From Janthinobacterium sp. (GTDB taxonomy: Bacteria; Pseudomonadota; Gammaproteobacteria; Burkholderiales; Burkholderiaceae_D), in the NCBI RefSeq assembly GCF_025356595.1, contig NZ_JANXSQ010000167.1: 64,000 nt of DNA, one strand, 5' to 3'. Position numbers and translations under genes: made by a program. Position 1 is the stretch's first letter; the number at the start of each line of letters is the position of its first letter. This document shows, one piece after another, positions 4,571-44,060 of the stretch. The notes beneath the pieces are model-generated. The model made no database searches. It was not told the DNA's origin and saw only the letters and a program-made list of their open reading frames with translations.

Positions 4571-5632
4571 ATGGGCTTGTTCTCAATATTCCGTAAAAAC
4601 AAGCAGGACGGCGCGTCCGTCGACAGCGGTTTTTATAACGCCGACGACCAGGCGGCAGGGGCGAAAGCTCGCTCCAAGCGCGCCAGCAACGCCGGCGCCG
4701 GCGCCGCGCCCCGGCGCGCCGCGAAGGAGGCCGCCGATCCCGTCTTGCCGGAAAAGAAACGCGCGCGCCGCCGCCTGATGGGCGCCATCGCGCTCGCCCT
4801 CGGCGTCGCCGTCGGCCTGCCGATGCTGCTCGATTCCGAACCGAAACCGCTGGCCTCGGACATCGCCTTCCAGATTCCCTCGAAGGACAAGCCGGCCGCC
4901 GCGCACGCGGCCCCGGCCGCCGCCCCGAGCTCCAGCGTGGCGGCCAGCGCCGCCCTGGACCAGTCCGAGGAAATCGTCACGGCGGCGGAGGCCAGGCCGA
5001 AGCCGGCCGCCCCGATCGCGCCCGTCCCGGCGGCCGCGCCGCAGGTGGCCGAAGTACGGACTTACACGGAACCGAAGCCGGAGGCGCCGGCCAAGGTGGC
5101 GGCCAAGCCCGACACCAAGTCGGACGAGCTCAAGGCGCACGAGGCGAAACTGGCCGAGGCCAGGGCGCGCGAGGCGAAGCTGGCCGAGGCCAAGGTTCGC
5201 GAGGCGCGCGAGGCGCGCGAAGCGAAGCTGCTCGAGGCCAAGGCGGCGCACGAGGCGAAGCTGGCCGAAGCCAAGGCGGCGCACGAGGCCAAGCCGGTCG
5301 AGGCCAAGCCCGCCGCCAAGCCTGCGCAGTCGGCCGACGACGCCACGCGCGCCCTGTCCATCCTGGAGGGCAAGGCGGCCGCCAAGCCGGCCGAGGCGGC
5401 CGCCGGCAGGTTCGTCGTGCAGGTCGCCGCGCTGGCGACGCAGGACAAGGTCGACGAGTTGCAGGAAAAGTTGCGCGACGCGGGCATCCATTCCTTCACT
5501 CAGAAAGTGCCAACCCCGGCCGGCGAGCGCATCCGCGTGCGCGTCGGTCCCTTCGGCAGCAGGGAAGACGCCGAGAAGGCGCGCGCCAAGCTGAACAAGC
5601 TGGGCCTGGGCGGCAGCCTGGTGCCGGTGTGA
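4571..5632 (+). CDS. SPOR domain cell-division protein (DedD-like)
   Basis: N-terminal basic region plus one TM segment (LMGAIALALGVAVGLPMLL). Ala/Pro/Lys/Glu low-complexity linker. C-terminal SPOR-like FVVQVAAL..RVRVGPF..AEKARAKL. Sits in the position folC-dedD-cvpA. Confidence 0.85.
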   Translation: MGLFSIFRKNKQDGASVDSGFYNADDQAAGAKARSKRASNAGAGAAPRRAAKEAADPVLPEKKRARRRLMGAIALALGVAVGLPMLLDSEPKPLASDIAFQIPSKDKPAAAHAAPAAAPSSSVAASAALDQSEEIVTAAEARPKPAAPIAPVPAAAPQVAEVRTYTEPKPEAPAKVAAKPDTKSDELKAHEAKLAEARAREAKLAEAKVREAREAREAKLLEAKAAHEAKLAEAKAAHEAKPVEAKPAAKPAQSADDATRALSILEGKAAAKPAEAAAGRFVVQVAALATQDKVDELQEKLRDAGIHSFTQKVPTPAGERIRVRVGPFGSREDAEKARAKLNKLGLGGSLVPV

Positions 5633-26199: not shown

Positions 26200-28150
<1,951 letters not shown>

Positions 28151-28406: not shown

Positions 28407-30350
28407 TTACAACACTTCGCTGGCGTGATCGGCCAGGCGCGAACGCTCGCCGCGGGCCAGGGTGACGTGACCGCTGTGCGACCAACCCTTGAAGCGGTCG
28501 ACCACATAGGTCAGGCCGCTCGAACCTTCGGTCAGGTAAGGCGTGTCGATCTGCGCGATATTGCCCAGGCAGAGGATCTTGGTGCCGGGACCGGCGCGCG
28601 TGACCAGGGTCTTGACCTGTTTCGGCGTCAAGTTCTGCGCTTCGTCGATGATCAGGAACTTGTTGACGAAGGTGCGCCCGCGCATGAAGTTGAGCGATTT
28701 GATCTTGATGCGCGAACGGATCAGGTCCTGCGTCGCCGCGCGGCCCCATTCGCCGCCGTCGGAGTCGGACTTGTTGAGCACTTCCAGATTGTCGTCGAAG
28801 GCGCCCATCCACGGCGACATCTTCTCTTCCTCCGTGCCCGGCAGGAAACCGATGTCCTCGCCGACCGGCACCGTCACGCGGGTGACGATGATCTCGTTGT
28901 AGAGCTTCGTCTCCAGCACTTGCGCCAGGCCGGCGGCGAGCGCCAGCAGGGTCTTGCCGGTGCCGGCCTGGCCGAGCAGGGTGACGAAGTCGCATTCCGG
29001 ATTCATCAACAGGTTCAGCGCGAAGTTCTGCTCGCGGTTGCGGGCGGTGACGCCCCACACATTGTTCTTCGTGTGGCTGAAGTCGCGCAGCGTTTGCAGC
29101 ACGGCCGTCTTGCCGGTGATTTGCTTGACCTGGCCGTAGAACGACGCTTCGCCGTTCTTCGGTTCCAGGTAGATGAACTGGTTCACCAGCATCGAGGGCA
29201 CGAAGGGACCGGTGACGCGGTAGAAGGTCGAGCTGACGCCGCCCTTGTTTTCCTGCCAGGATTCCATGTCCTTGCCGTGCTTGTTCCAGAAATCGTCCGG
29301 CAATTGCACGATGCCCGAATACAGCAGGTCGGTGTCCTCCATCACATGGTCGTTGAAATAATCTTCAGCGGGCAGACCCAGGGCGCGGGCCTTGATGCGC
29401 ATGTTGATGTCCTTCGACACCAGCACCACCGGACGCTCCGGTTGCTCGGCTTCGAGCGAACGGACCACGGCCAGGATCTGGTTGTCGGCCTTGCCGACGG
29501 GCAGGCCCATCGGCAGGTCGGCGCTTTGCAGGCGGGTCTGGAAGAACAGACGGCCCTTGGCGTCCTTGTTGCCCAGTTTCGACAGCGGGATGCCGCTCTC
29601 GATGGCGTCGTCGTCCGTGTGGCCGACCAGGGCGTCGAGGGTGCGCGAAACCTGGCGGGCGTTGCGCGCCACTTCGGTCATGCCCTTCTTGTGGTCGTCC
29701 AGCTCTTCCAGCGTCATCATCGGCAGATAGACGTCGTGTTCCTCGAAGCGGAACAGCGATGAAGGGTCGTGCATCAGCACGTTCGTGTCGAGCACGAACA
29801 GCTTGGTCACGCCGCTCTGGTCGGCGGCGCGGCTGGCCGAGGACTTGAGCGGCACTTCGACCGGCTTGTGCTTGGCCGGATGCGGTTTCTCGACCGGCGC
29901 GCTCGGCGCGCTCGGCGCGATCGGCGTGACCTTGGCGCGCACGGCGGGCGCCTTGGCCTTGGCGGCCGGCGCGGCGACCGGCGCCACGGCGACCGGCGCC
30001 ACGGCAAGCGGTGCCACCGCGACCGGCGCGAGCGGCGCGGCGACCGGCGCGACCGGCTTGGCCACCATCAGGGCGGCGACTTGCTTGATCTTGGTGGCGG
30101 CGTTGCCGCGCGGCTTAGGCGCGGCGGCAGGCGCGGCGGCGACCGGCGCGGGCGCTGGCGCCGGCACGGCTTTCGGACGCGCGGCCGGGGCCGGCGCGCT
30201 CTTGGCCTGGGCGACGGCTTGCACCGCCGCCTTGCGGGCGGCAGGGGCAGGGGTGGCGCGCGCGCTGTCGGCCGTCGGGTAATCTTCCGCCAGCAGTATG
30301 GTGGCGGGCTTGCTAGGTAATTTTGGCAGTGGCATCAGGATCTCAATCAA
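28407..30350 (-). CDS. PhoH2-type protein: N-terminal PIN domain fused to a PhoH-like ATPase, with an Ala/Pro-rich leader
   Basis: FVLDTNVLMHDP (PIN). Walker A GQAGTGKT. DEAQN box (IIDEAQNLT). About 190 aa of low-complexity N-terminus, so the true start is uncertain. Confidence 0.9.
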   Translation of the reverse strand: MIEILMPLPKLPSKPATILLAEDYPTADSARATPAPAARKAAVQAVAQAKSAPAPAARPKAVPAPAPAPVAAAPAAAPKPRGNAATKIKQVAALMVAKPVAPVAAPLAPVAVAPLAVAPVAVAPVAAPAAKAKAPAVRAKVTPIAPSAPSAPVEKPHPAKHKPVEVPLKSSASRAADQSGVTKLFVLDTNVLMHDPSSLFRFEEHDVYLPMMTLEELDDHKKGMTEVARNARQVSRTLDALVGHTDDDAIESGIPLSKLGNKDAKGRLFFQTRLQSADLPMGLPVGKADNQILAVVRSLEAEQPERPVVLVSKDINMRIKARALGLPAEDYFNDHVMEDTDLLYSGIVQLPDDFWNKHGKDMESWQENKGGVSSTFYRVTGPFVPSMLVNQFIYLEPKNGEASFYGQVKQITGKTAVLQTLRDFSHTKNNVWGVTARNREQNFALNLLMNPECDFVTLLGQAGTGKTLLALAAGLAQVLETKLYNEIIVTRVTVPVGEDIGFLPGTEEEKMSPWMGAFDDNLEVLNKSDSDGGEWGRAATQDLIRSRIKIKSLNFMRGRTFVNKFLIIDEAQNLTPKQVKTLVTRAGPGTKILCLGNIAQIDTPYLTEGSSGLTYVVDRFKGWSHSGHVTLARGERSRLADHASEVL

Positions 30351-41346: not shown

Positions 41347-41361
41347 TTGTTGGATGTTCAG

Positions 41362-41394
41362 AAAAAAAGCGGCGATCTGATCGCCGCTTTTTTT
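41362..41394 (+). terminator. Strong (bidirectional-looking) terminator after hom
   Basis: A7-GCGGCGA-tctga-TCGCCGC-T7. Confidence 0.85.
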
Positions 41395-41647
41395 GTGCCT
41401 GGGGGGGGCTACGCAACTGACCCAAAGGCATACGAATCAATAGCTTGCGATGCTAATGAGTTTGACTCGTTCAAGTCAGCCACTTACTCTTCGCTCCCCG
41501 GCTCGACCACGGGAGCAGAAAGTTAGCCTAATCGGACAAGCACCGTCTCAAATGCGTTCGTCACTTGGTGACAGAACGTTACCCGTGGGGTGAAGTTAAT
41601 TTTTGGGGCTGCATGAGTCGAGTTCGCGAAATAAATACGGCGCTACC

Positions 41648-43189
41648 CTAACCGCGAGGCAAGGGGGTCTTCGTCTGCTCACGAACTAAGTCAGCGAAGA
41701 ACTTCGCAAGTGGCTGGACATTCTGGTAGGAGCTGGCCTGTTCAAGGGCAGCCATGTAGGGGCTGCGCTGTTGCAGCGGTACGATAGTCCAGACGTAGCC
41801 GCCCGTAACGAGCATCGCATTGAAAATGAAACGAGCCAGGCGCCCGTTTCCATCCATATACGGGTGAATGTAGACAAAGAAAAAGTGCCCTAGGACTGCG
41901 CGCACCGCCGAGTGTGGTTCGGATGCGAGGAGTTCGAAAAAGACTGGCATGCAATCGCGTACTGCCTCTTTGGACAATGGCACATGCAAAGCGCCACGAA
42001 TAAACACTTGGTCGTTCCGCCAGCCGGCCAGGTCCGAAGGCTTCAGAATGCCCGCTGTGACGCTTGGGCTAAAGAGTGCCCGATACCAGGAGCTCAACGC
42101 CTCATGGAGTGGCCAATTCGAGGGTTTTGTTCGAATGGCCGTTTCAATGTAATCCTTGAGCTTGAGGTGCGCTTCGAAGTAGCCTTTCGCCGCCATCGCG
42201 TCTCGGGCCTTTATGTCGTCTCCGTCTGGCTGCCATTGTCCATTCCGTACCTTCTCTATGAGATCGGGGGTGACTCGATAGCCCTCGATAGAAAGCGAAT
42301 GATAGGCGTCTGTAAGGTATCGCTCCTCCACCTGCGCCAGCGTGTCTTGAACGTTCCCGGGAGCCTTATCTGGAGCAGGGAACTCGTCGATGACTGTCTG
42401 CCGCATTTGTTGCCACATCAAACGCAAACGTTGAACGTACGGTGATTCAGGACGGCCGGCTGGAAGTTGCGCGGGTGCAACTTCAAACGGCATCGACTCA
42501 GTCACAGTTATGTTCACTGAGCGCATGGTCTCCAGAATCTCGTCTGCGACTTGGCTGCGGCCAATGGCGCGCATTCCGCCGGCAAGCCGTCCTGCGATGT
42601 GGGCGTGACCGCCATCGAGAAGAGGACGAAGTAGCTCAGTAAGGTCTTCGAGGCTTGCAAGCGCGATGCGCGCCGCCAATGGCTGCTGAGTAAAAAATGC
42701 AGGACCTACCGCCATGAGTGCTGCTGCTAAGGTGGCAAGGCGCAGCCCTCCGGCATCATGCGAGTCCTTGGAGTCGCACAGTTTTGGCGCTCGATATAAG
42801 AAAAGAGAGCAGCCATGGGGAAGTTTGACCAGCTGATTATTAGCGGCAAATGCCCATACCTGCAGCTGTTGCGGCAAACTGCGTTCGCCGGTTCTGAGCA
42901 TCAGCGATTGGTCCGGGGAGAGGTGCCAATCGGCTCCAAATCGCTCCTCGCAGTAGCCGGCGATGAACTCTCGCATGCGTGCGAACCACGCTGATGAGCT
43001 TCCGGCCTTCTCATCCGGACGGGATGCAAGATACCAGCCGCGAACGACCTCCTGAATAAAGCCCGATGCCTGCAGCCGCTGGCGGTCCATGCGCGGTAAG
43101 TCAGCGCTACGAAGTACGTGTTTGCCAGCCTTCTGCAGATCTGCCAGGAGTGTCAGTGATTTCGCAAGCAATTCCTGCTGGGTAGCCAT
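41648..43189 (-). CDS. Fic/Fido-domain protein with an N-terminal AbiEi-like wHTH region
   Basis: Fic motif HPYMDGNGRLAR. Class II inhibitory motif SLSIEG lies upstream in the same chain. The N-terminus ..HVLRSADLPRMDRQRLQASGFIQEVVRGWYLAS resembles AbiEi_4-type antitoxin HTHs. GC is lower than in the flanks. Confidence 0.88.
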   Translation of the reverse strand: MATQQELLAKSLTLLADLQKAGKHVLRSADLPRMDRQRLQASGFIQEVVRGWYLASRPDEKAGSSSAWFARMREFIAGYCEERFGADWHLSPDQSLMLRTGERSLPQQLQVWAFAANNQLVKLPHGCSLFLYRAPKLCDSKDSHDAGGLRLATLAAALMAVGPAFFTQQPLAARIALASLEDLTELLRPLLDGGHAHIAGRLAGGMRAIGRSQVADEILETMRSVNITVTESMPFEVAPAQLPAGRPESPYVQRLRLMWQQMRQTVIDEFPAPDKAPGNVQDTLAQVEERYLTDAYHSLSIEGYRVTPDLIEKVRNGQWQPDGDDIKARDAMAAKGYFEAHLKLKDYIETAIRTKPSNWPLHEALSSWYRALFSPSVTAGILKPSDLAGWRNDQVFIRGALHVPLSKEAVRDCMPVFFELLASEPHSAVRAVLGHFFFVYIHPYMDGNGRLARFIFNAMLVTGGYVWTIVPLQQRSPYMAALEQASSYQNVQPLAKFFADLVREQTKTPLPRG

Positions 43190-43303
43190 TGCACTATTCT
43201 TAAGTAATTTATTGCACTAGTTAGATGTATTGAGCTTCACTATTTTAATGCAATGTATCACACTAATTTTGAGTATTCAATTTCACTAGTTTGGCGTAGC
43301 TCG
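43189..43303. repeat. Five tandem degenerate direct repeats with an exact 23-bp period (consensus TTnCACTAnTTTnnnGTAnT)
   Basis: CACTA occurs at 43192, 43215, 43238, 43261 and 43284. T at column 10, G at column 16 and A at column 18 are invariant. The array starts at the fic start codon and extends 115 bp upstream. Confidence 0.85.
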
Positions 43304-43472
43304 CGGCGCGTGGGGCGCCAATGCCGGGCGGCCCTGACTCCGACCACCGCCCCGTCGCATACAGGCAACGGGTCCCATTCTGCTTCCCGACAGGGGCCGC
43401 AGGTTCAGCCCTCGTTGCCGGCACGGCCCTGGCTTGCGGCCGGACGGCGCAAACCCGCATGAGCGGGCGCTG

Positions 43473-43958
43473 CTATTTTTTCGCAGCCGCCTCGCCCTTG
43501 GCACCCGCGCGCCTGGCGAGCAATGGGATCCGTTCAGTCGCGCTCACATCGCGGATCGCGACATCCCACGCGCCATGCGGAGCGGCGGCGAAAGAAACCG
43601 TGTAGACGTGACCCGCCTCGACATCGATGATTTTTTTCAGCGGGAAGCGCGAGCTCGAGCTCGAGGTAGTCAGGTCTATGTGATACGTGTATTCGACGAC
43701 ATGCTTGCCCGGCAAGATCTCTATTTCTCTACCGCCCAGCGTGACCGGAAATTCCGACCGGACGTAGTCGTCCACGAGAATGCCATCGACGCTATACATG
43801 TTAATTGCCTGACTATTCAGAAAGACGCCCACGTCGTCGAGTGCGTGCAGATTTCCCGCGTAAACGGGAATCCGCCGGGGAGTCATTGTTGCTGAGCAGG
43901 CACTGAGTAAAAGCAATGCGGTGACGCATGCAACAGTGCGAAGTTGATGTTTGAGCAT
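43473..43958 (-). CDS. Hypothetical lipoprotein
   Basis: MLKHQLRTVACVTALLLLSAC signal peptide with lipobox. Beta-rich mature part. No family recognised. The alternative start is 43982. Confidence 0.65.
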   Translation of the reverse strand: MLKHQLRTVACVTALLLLSACSATMTPRRIPVYAGNLHALDDVGVFLNSQAINMYSVDGILVDDYVRSEFPVTLGGREIEILPGKHVVEYTYHIDLTTSSSSSRFPLKKIIDVEAGHVYTVSFAAAPHGAWDVAIRDVSATERIPLLARRAGAKGEAAAKK

Positions 43959-44060
43959 TTGAAAACCAATTAGTTGATGCATGGAAACATTATTGTAGCA
44001 TCATCTGACTTCACGCCGTCCCAAAAACACCGGCCCGCGACCGCGCGCCGACCCTCGTCC

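Follow-up and report, generated by a model that had tools for sequence, protein, structure and literature searches.

What does a Fic enzyme do with an N-terminal half that resembles an antitoxin and with a row of short repeats running up to its own start codon? This question is raised by a gene on the minus strand of a 64,000-nucleotide stretch of DNA from Janthinobacterium sp. (NCBI RefSeq assembly GCF_025356595.1, contig NZ_JANXSQ010000167.1), which was analysed as a whole and is called the window hereafter. The open reading frame (ORF) begins with ATG and encodes 513 amino acids, which a preliminary description had read as a single-chain Fic protein fused to an AbiEi-type antitoxin domain. 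We find that it combines an N-terminal module with a predicted AbiEi fold and a Fic domain of class II close to human FICD, that full-length homologues with 47–93% identity are present in many phyla, and that an array of 23- or 24-bp boxes accompanies this architecture throughout the family (Table 1). With slightly more confidence than doubt, we interpret the gene as a self-contained, mobile single-gene module, in which an AbiEi-fold DNA-binding module would be coupled to a cis-blocked, FICD-like Fic enzyme, forming a fused toxin–antitoxin (TA), addiction or abortive-infection-type element.

Motifs and predicted fold alike mark the C-terminal part of the protein as a genuine class II Fic domain. 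The Pfam family Fic (PF02661), whose recognition the preliminary description had anticipated, scores 41.9 bits against a gathering cut-off of 24 and is the sole Pfam domain recognised in the protein. The closest solved relative by sequence is human FICD/HYPE (phmmer against the PDB, E 9e-17, residues 286–502), and a Foldseek search with the AlphaFold2 (AF2) model of the full-length protein (predicted local distance difference test, pLDDT, 89.2; predicted template modelling score, pTM, 0.87) returns FICD at E 6e-8 as well as Fic-1, BT_2513 and CdFic, which identifies the Fic fold. The complete active-site motif HPYMDGNGRLAR (H442 to R453) agrees with HxFx(D/E)GNGRxxR, with Y replacing F. Every column of the inhibitory-helix motif SLSIEG pairs with one of the inhibitory TVAIEG in human FICD; the motif lies within a predicted helix (residues 291–301), N-terminal to the Fic core and in the same chain, as in class II enzymes. 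Both motifs had been pointed out in the preliminary description, and the N-terminal strings quoted there are likewise present in the translation. Among 56 close relatives, H442, G447, N448, R450 and R453 as well as SLSIEG are invariant; among 58 divergent representatives, the catalytic motif is intact in 46 and SLSIEG is exact in 48. The domain is quite probably an autoinhibited AMP-transferase, AMPylation itself being a predicted activity.

The N-terminal module (residues 1–285, linker into the Fic domain included) was modelled separately with a pLDDT of 91.4. A Foldseek search of the PDB with this model yields exactly three significant matches, all with a probability of 1.0, namely two chains of AbiEi from S. 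agalactiae (6y8q; E 5e-4 and 7e-4) and Rv2827c from M. tuberculosis (1zel; E 1.4e-3, 313 aligned columns). The alignments to 6y8q and 1zel span 233–313 columns, and the matches that follow are at E ~0.1. Rv2827c, which serves as the structural reference of COG5340 for AbiEi, consists of a winged helix-turn-helix (wHTH) with the element order H1-S1-H2-t-H3-S2-W1-S3 and a C-terminal domain (CTD; PMC3985639). As assigned by DSSP, residues 4–55 of our model follow the same published order, with H1 at residues 4–20, S1 at 25–27, a short H2, H3 at 33–41, S2 at 45–49 and S3 at 52–55. In close relatives, R33 and R38 of the predicted recognition helix H3 are invariant and R36 is nearly so, and the ‘RGWY’ wing holds the invariant G51-W52. 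The AbiEi-like CTD is composed of a beta-rich part followed by a helical bundle and includes a conserved AGRLAGA at residues 199–205.

The predicted structure therefore supports an AbiEi fold, wHTH and CTD together, over ~285 residues. The preliminary description had limited the AbiEi-like part to the first ~130 residues and had proposed a search of an AlphaFold model with Foldseek, which returned AbiEi structures as the only significant matches to the module. Its assignment hence stands for the fold and gains the whole CTD, whereas membership of the AbiEi sequence family, which it had also implied, finds no support in sequence and profile comparisons. Scans of the N-terminal region with NCBIfam, PHROG and PADLOC models gave no match. 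Since the AbiEi sequence signature and an AbiEii partner are both lacking, the protein ought not to be classed among the AbiE systems. Another candidate precedent, a Bordetella structure deposited as ‘N-terminal domain of Fic family protein’ (8uqu), matched the whole model and was gone when the N-terminal module served as the query; it thus matches the Fic part and is no precedent. Matches 4–10 of the module are nucleotidyltransferases with probabilities of 0.2–0.66, among them the putative nucleotidyltransferase JHP933 of H. pylori, ANT(2'')-Ia, MenT1 and CCA-adding enzymes. The comparison of models thereby hints at a possible distant relationship of the AbiEi-type CTD to the nucleotidyltransferase fold, or at mimicry of it.

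Immediately upstream of the gene lies the repeat array that the preliminary description had called its own repeat operator, and which we describe as a putative operator of five head-to-tail 23-bp boxes. On the plus strand, CACTA cores are found at 43192, 43215, 43238, 43261 and 43284 with a spacing of exactly 23 bp, and the core CACTA[ATG]TT occurs nowhere else in the window on either strand. The 120 bp upstream of the Fic gene show a self-identity of 0.56–0.58 at lag 23. The period of 23 bp is no multiple of three, which disfavours a coding reading of the array. No terminator is present between the array and the start codon, and an Rfam scan of the window matched no family.

The array is a feature of the whole family. 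When self-similarity was measured in the 120 bp before the start codon, the strongest periodicity fell at lag 23/24 in 76 of 77 homologous loci, as compared to 7.2% of 4,838 background windows drawn from 78 related loci; with an identity of at least 0.45 required at this lag, the respective values are 67 of 77 and 0.08%. Sixty-six loci have a period of 24 bp, and ten have one of 23 bp. The arrays comprise ~3–5 units, always have the same orientation relative to the gene and end at a median distance of 20 bp from the start codon; the copies on the plasmids B. thetaiotaomicron p5482 and Agrobacterium pAt likewise have an equivalent array upstream. Across phyla, the 24-bp unit has the approximate consensus AT.G.AC(A/G)ACA(C/T)AATAA(G/A/C)CTA(A)T, and a box core ACAAC-AnAATAAnCTA is common to Bacteroidota, Proteobacteria, Acidobacteriota and Vampirovibrio. 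With a core shared across phyla, the array would be hard to explain as a host-specific promoter signal. Two further candidates were dismissed: a second array at one homologous locus (L001) is coincidental and lies inside a cysK-like gene, and small upstream ‘ORFs’ at homologous loci are translations of the array.

Box and protein vary together. The canonical helix and wing, RTHRERL...KGWYIP, go with the canonical box, and clades with an altered helix or wing have cores of their own; the D35/R50 clade, to which the Janthinobacterium protein belongs, has 23-bp units. This co-variation of box sequence and period with recognition helix and wing points in the direction expected for a protein that reads the array, and it is confounded by phylogeny. 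AbiEi is a repressor of its own operon, and each 23-bp ‘AbiEi-box’ has been proposed to be occupied by one monomer (PMC3985639). The period of 23/24 bp matches this proposed one-monomer footprint, and we thus propose that one monomer of the Fic fusion may sit on each box. That the protein binds DNA and regulates its own gene is a prediction we consider probable.

The fusion is found far beyond Janthinobacterium. Relatives occur in at least 587 genomes when one genome per species is scanned, and nearly all of the best 80 match from about residue 1 to about residue 500–512; the hosts of these 80 belong to Beta-, Gamma-, Alpha- and Deltaproteobacteria, Bacteroidota, Acidobacteriota, Myxococcota and Vampirovibrio. 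With the N-terminal module alone as the query, an exhaustive HMMER search collected ~1,078 clusters at 50% identity, of which those that are complete are Fic fusions of ~500–530 aa, and the module is essentially never found without a Fic domain. Two ‘standalone’ modules of ~280 aa with a separate Fic gene, considered as two-gene ancestors, both proved to be frameshifted fusions. In one 454-aa protein (P0207), pentapeptide repeats precede the module (residues 176–403) and no Fic domain was detected; here the fusion may be of another kind, the contig truncated or the gene mis-called.

The gene has no constant companion. Among 78 loci, there is no conserved neighbour of at least 80 aa, the best family being present in 7, and the homologous loci share no conserved small ORF of the AS1 type. 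AbiEii-like ORFs lie within 4 kb in 3 of the 78 loci, each with its own AbiEi. The family is mobile: 80 plasmids carry it, 75 of them at full length and 41 of them conjugative, including B. thetaiotaomicron p5482 and plasmids of Agrobacterium and Rhizobium, and plasmid copies are often near partition or recombinase genes. Searches of a phage genome collection and of a viral structure library found no relatives. The copy of B. cenocepacia lies in an island with integrase, AlpA and primase genes, beside a 1,678-aa Eco57I-helicase gene, and a relative with 77% identity has a VapC gene on one side and capsule genes on the other, and an AbiEi_1/AbiEii pair lies ~1.2 kb upstream of it. In the B. cenocepacia-type island (loci L084/L086, 2627–7663), the 1,678-aa protein encoded directly upstream has Eco57I-like, WH_1, DUF8437 and helicase domains, and its gene is flanked by integrase, AlpA, Toprim primase and DUF932; an integrative element probably carries it as defence cargo. 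At loci L087 (5049–7793) and L034 (3161–4689), close relatives of the Fic gene adjoin genuine AbiEi_1/AbiEii or AbiEi/AbiEii pairs and a VapC (PIN) gene; AbiE systems and the AbiEi-fold/Fic fusion thus share small islets.

Members of the family carry names such as ‘Fic family protein’, ‘cell filamentation protein Fic’ and ‘hypothetical protein’, and full-text literature searches retrieved no description of an AbiEi–Fic fusion or of its operator array. The architecture is fixed, widespread across phyla and annotated, yet it appears never to have been characterised, which bears out the remark in the preliminary description that no characterised example was known. The same description had asked whether the architecture is widespread and whether it sits in defence islands; the answer is divided, for it is very common and some relatives do lie in integrative islands or next to TA and AbiE genes, but the copy in the window stands by itself.

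Comparison with known systems shows where the family departs from each of them. With AbiEi, the antitoxin of the type IV AbiE TA and abortive-infection systems (6y8q, 1zel; COG5340), the N-terminal module shares the two-domain fold of wHTH and CTD, the wHTH topology, boxes of ~23 bp in its own upstream region and a position upstream of a nucleotide-transferring effector to which it is presumably coupled. It differs in that sequence and profile similarity to AbiEi is not detectable, and in that AbiEi is a separate gene paired with the pol-beta-type nucleotidyltransferase AbiEii/DUF1814, while here the module is fused to Fic and no bicistronic arrangement is found. FICD/HYPE (4u04, 6i7g) is the best sequence and structure match for residues 286–507 and shares both the (S/T)xxxE(G/N) motif, which precedes the Fic core within one chain, and a canonical catalytic loop. 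FICD, however, has a membrane anchor and tetratricopeptide repeats (TPR) and acts on BiP in the endoplasmic reticulum, whereas the protein described here has an AbiEi-fold accessory module, a predicted DNA binder, and is encoded by a mobile bacterial gene.

Two bacterial Fic proteins and one fused TA defence protein are also close. In CapRel(SJ46), a toxin and an antitoxin-like domain are likewise joined in one polypeptide encoded by a solo mobile gene; its enzyme is a RelA/SpoT-type pyrophosphokinase, with a fold unrelated to that of Fic, and its regulatory domain senses a phage capsid protein instead of being a DNA-binding autorepressor. SoFic is a single-gene class II Fic, as is the present protein, and is reported to provide abortive-infection defence by AMPylation (PMC11514479, PMC12249575). 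The PADLOC model of SoFic is the best match in the defence library (E 1e-19), covering only model positions 58–265 of 361, and the NCBIfam SoFic model scores 21 bits against a cut-off of 550. The wHTH-type CTD of SoFic is absent here, where the protein ends at the Fic core and has an unrelated module at its N terminus, and the small downstream ORF AS1 reported for SoFic has no conserved equivalent. Since only the Fic core matches and the CTD is absent, the protein is not a member of the SoFic family. CccR of Yersinia pseudotuberculosis, a Fic protein that represses its own gene through a helix-turn-helix (HTH) and serves as an effector of the type VI secretion system (T6SS; PMC9755527), also unites a Fic enzyme and a DNA-binding domain in one chain. 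It does so in the opposite order, with Fic N-terminal and HTH C-terminal, in a SoFic-like fold and as a dimer secreted by the T6SS; an AbiEi-fold module is absent from it, and a tandem box array has not been reported for it.

With this in mind, we propose the following mechanism for a fused TA, addiction or abortive-infection-type element. Monomers of the N-terminal module, one per box, would occupy the 4–5 head-to-tail boxes of 23/24 bp, whose row ends at the ribosome-binding site or the start codon, and this occupancy would repress transcription of the gene itself, as AbiEi does at its 23-bp boxes. In the protein, the glutamate E302 of the inhibitory helix, perhaps together with the N-terminal module, would keep the Fic active site blocked. 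A trigger would relieve the glutamate block and possibly also the grip of the module, whereupon the released Fic domain may AMPylate a cellular target and thereby cause growth arrest. Individual elements of this mechanism have precedents: autorepression in AbiE, abortive-infection defence by a class II Fic in SoFic, and HTH-mediated repression of the own promoter by a Fic protein in CccR. For a toxin or defence role as such, the chances appear to fall just short of even. A more far-reaching version, which we regard as unlikely, holds that the number of monomers lined up on the boxes gates both transcription and the oligomeric or inhibitory state of Fic, so that the gene would be a fused type IV-like TA system; displacement from the array or a change in the state of the DNA (phage infection, loss of the element, replication stress) would then lead to AMPylation and growth arrest.

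Several observations speak against a fused TA or defence element built on an AbiEi-type DNA-binding module. Pfam finds nothing in residues 1–285 or 1–137 even at E ≤ 10, and the match to PF13338 (AbiEi_4) or COG5340 in residues 1–330 that the preliminary description expected did not appear. A hidden Markov model built from 35 divergent N-terminal modules retrieved only noise from the PDB sequences, neither 6y8q nor 1zel being among the matches, and Pfam AbiEi_4 touched just one of these 35 relatives (E 0.042). With hhalign, the module profile was compared with genuine AbiEi proteins taken from loci where an AbiEi/AbiEii pair stands beside the Fic gene (the AbiEi of locus L034, a 20-sequence AbiEi alignment and the AbiEi_1 protein of L087), giving E values of 0.14, 0.21 and 0.17, which are not significant; the 20-sequence alignment is shallow and contains only homologues of at least 85% identity. 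The pairs formed by hhalign are in register, RGWY with KGLY and SPEQSL..H.G with SLEYALHYHG. Template modelling (TM) scores of the Foldseek matches to AbiEi structures are modest (0.38–0.51), and convergence or a very deep divergence might in principle lie behind the fold match. The characterised operators of AbiEi consist of two inverted repeats and not of 4–5 direct repeats, and a sigma-70 scan detected no promoter near the array. The copy in the window is a solo islet among housekeeping genes outside any defence island, as are many other copies of the family. Finally, the catalytic motif is degenerate in 12 of the 58 divergent representatives, all of which keep the N-terminal module, and a regulatory role would account for this no less well than a toxin role. 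Such members include P0129, P0133, P0141, P0164, P0176, P0199, P0216 and P0220; in the degenerate members, Q, K, R, Y or A stands in place of the histidine or the loop is disrupted, and some have also lost the inhibitory glutamate. They may be pseudo-enzyme regulators or decaying copies.

The main rival is accordingly a one-component regulator, that is, an autoregulated transcription factor in which Fic serves as a sensor or regulatory module and which has no part in growth arrest or defence. DNA binding could then be tuned either by the sensing of nucleotides or by auto-AMPylation and de-AMPylation of the kind known from the bifunctional FICD. This would agree with the many solo insertions among housekeeping genes, with the degenerate members that retain the module, and with FICD as the nearest enzyme relative, FICD being mainly a regulated AMPylase/deAMPylase and not a toxin. 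CccR, moreover, sets the precedent of a Fic protein that is a genuine transcription factor (PMC9755527). A host regulator, however, would be unusual as a patchy, mobile, plasmid-borne and compositionally foreign gene that recurs in integrative islands and next to TA or defence genes, and with the box core confined to this single array of the window, no regulon is visible. We consider a pure regulator unlikely. Alternatively, the N-terminal module may not bind DNA at all and may recruit targets or regulate the enzyme in the manner of the TPR domain of FICD, the array being a host-factor site or a promoter architecture. That AbiEi homology escapes detection by sequence, that the fold bears a weak likeness to JHP933, ANT(2'') and MenT1 (probability 0.2–0.66), and that the CTD of AbiEi alone is antitoxic at the protein level in AbiE (PMC3985639) could all be taken in this sense. 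Yet gene and array stay together across phyla, plasmids and chromosomes, the array co-varies with the wHTH, and arginines are conserved in the predicted recognition helix; since the core is kept from Bacteroidota to Proteobacteria, a shared host factor or host promoter signal would be an improbable explanation. A module without DNA binding thus appears very unlikely.

Two further explanations assign the array a role other than that of an operator. It might act as RNA, either as a transcribed tandem-repeat antitoxin, as in ToxIN-like type III TA systems, or as a 5'-leader. Direct repeats of constant orientation directly upstream of a putative toxin gene and a strand-asymmetric composition, with 43% A in the sense strand, would be expected in this case; however, 42 arrays show no excess folding over shuffled sequence (mean z −0.58 sense, −0.07 antisense), and known type III antitoxin units measure 34–40 nt as compared to 23–24 nt here. 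The terminator, the structured RNA and the endoribonuclease toxin of a ToxIN-like system are all lacking, with no terminator before the gene, no Rfam match and a Fic enzyme in place of an endoribonuclease, and it is the wHTH variants of the protein that track the box sequence. A function as RNA is therefore very unlikely indeed. Iterons, on the other hand, are sets of 4–5 head-to-tail repeats of ~22 bp bound by a monomeric winged-helix Rep protein, and the repeats could be iteron- or centromere-like and the protein a Rep- or ParB-like binder that maintains a plasmid or an integrative and conjugative element. This idea draws on the 80 plasmids that carry the family, often near partition or recombinase genes, and we find it hardly credible, since most copies are chromosomal, solo and without replication or partition partners, the array always abuts the start codon of the gene itself, as expected of an operator, and the N-terminal module is essentially always fused to an intact enzyme domain. 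Weighed against these four explanations, a fused TA, addiction or abortive-infection-type element with an autoregulating AbiEi-fold module remains our preferred interpretation.

In the window, the gene occupies an islet of 2.7 kb between hom and a two-component system. Its GC content is 56.8% and its GC content at third codon positions (GC3) is 0.61, as compared to a GC content of 65–73% in the flanks and GC3 values of 0.91 in hom (homoserine dehydrogenase) and 0.96 in the histidine-kinase gene. The islet is compositionally foreign and the gene is horizontally acquired, in line with the lower-GC insertion noted in the preliminary description; a tRNA scan of the window came back empty, and neither an integrase nor flanking direct repeats were found in the islet. 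Upstream of the Fic gene, a 169-aa ORF (GC3 0.63) has a signal peptide and a lipobox (LLLSAC) and gave no Pfam, PADLOC or significant PHROG match; it is probably co-acquired cargo of the islet and no conserved partner. The left edge of the islet is marked by an inverted repeat of 19 bp (41359–41397), which follows hom directly, is near-perfect and has A- and T-runs to either side; it resembles a bidirectional intrinsic terminator. Other, GC-rich tandem repeats of the window comprise 30/33-bp units at 5131–5308, a 9-bp unit in ~26 copies at 27706–27966 and a 15-bp unit at 29972–30029; because their periods are multiples of three, they probably lie within coding sequence and are unrelated to the Fic array.

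Table 1. Positions in the window of the Fic fusion gene, its predicted parts, the upstream array and the surrounding islet
Feature	Position	Strand	Basis
AbiEi-fold/Fic fusion, whole gene	41648..43189	-	ORF list; full-length homologues; AF2 model
N-terminal module, residues 1–285: predicted two-domain AbiEi fold and linker into Fic	42335..43189	-	AF2, Foldseek
wHTH, residues 1–58	43016..43189	-	DSSP of both models
Predicted recognition helix H3, residues 33–41, RMDRQRLQA	43067..43093	-	Translation; family consensus RTHRERLxK
AbiEi-like CTD, ~residues 59–230	42500..43015	-	Secondary structure; spanned by Foldseek alignments to 6y8q, 1zel
Class II Fic (FICD-like) domain, residues 286–507	41669..42334	-	phmmer, Foldseek, Pfam, PADLOC
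Inhibitory-helix motif SLSIEG, residues 298–303 (S298...E302-G303)	42281..42298	-	Translation
Fic catalytic motif HPYMDGNGRLAR, residues 442–453 (H442...R453)	41831..41866	-	Translation
Putative operator, five head-to-tail 23-bp boxes	43192..43298	-	Repeat and core scans; GC 29%; ends at start codon
Low-GC, low-GC3 islet: Fic gene and 169-aa ORF, between hom and two-component system	41347..44060	.	GC, GC3
169-aa ORF with signal peptide and lipobox (LLLSAC)	43473..43982	-	Upstream of Fic gene; GC3 0.63

In summary, Fic enzymes are abundant in bacteria, and their regulation is understood for only a few of them. The family described here offers a putative regulatory logic that can be read from sequence, consisting of a glutamate-inhibited, FICD-like enzyme, a module with an antitoxin fold and a multi-box operator that travels with the gene. 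If our interpretation is correct, it would represent a widespread single-gene TA or defence candidate that PADLOC-DB v2.0.0 models match through the Fic core only, it would extend the AbiEi fold beyond the partnership with AbiEii, and it would provide a natural set of co-varying protein/operator pairs for the AbiEi-type reading of 23/24-bp boxes by monomers. Should gating by DNA, the less likely version, hold true, the family would stand for a new mechanistic class of Fic regulation, DNA-templated gating, as well as for a new widespread defence or addiction module. The family is common and includes copies in tractable hosts, among them B. thetaiotaomicron with BT_RS24275 on p5482, Agrobacterium and Rhizobium with their plasmids and B. 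cenocepacia with its islands.

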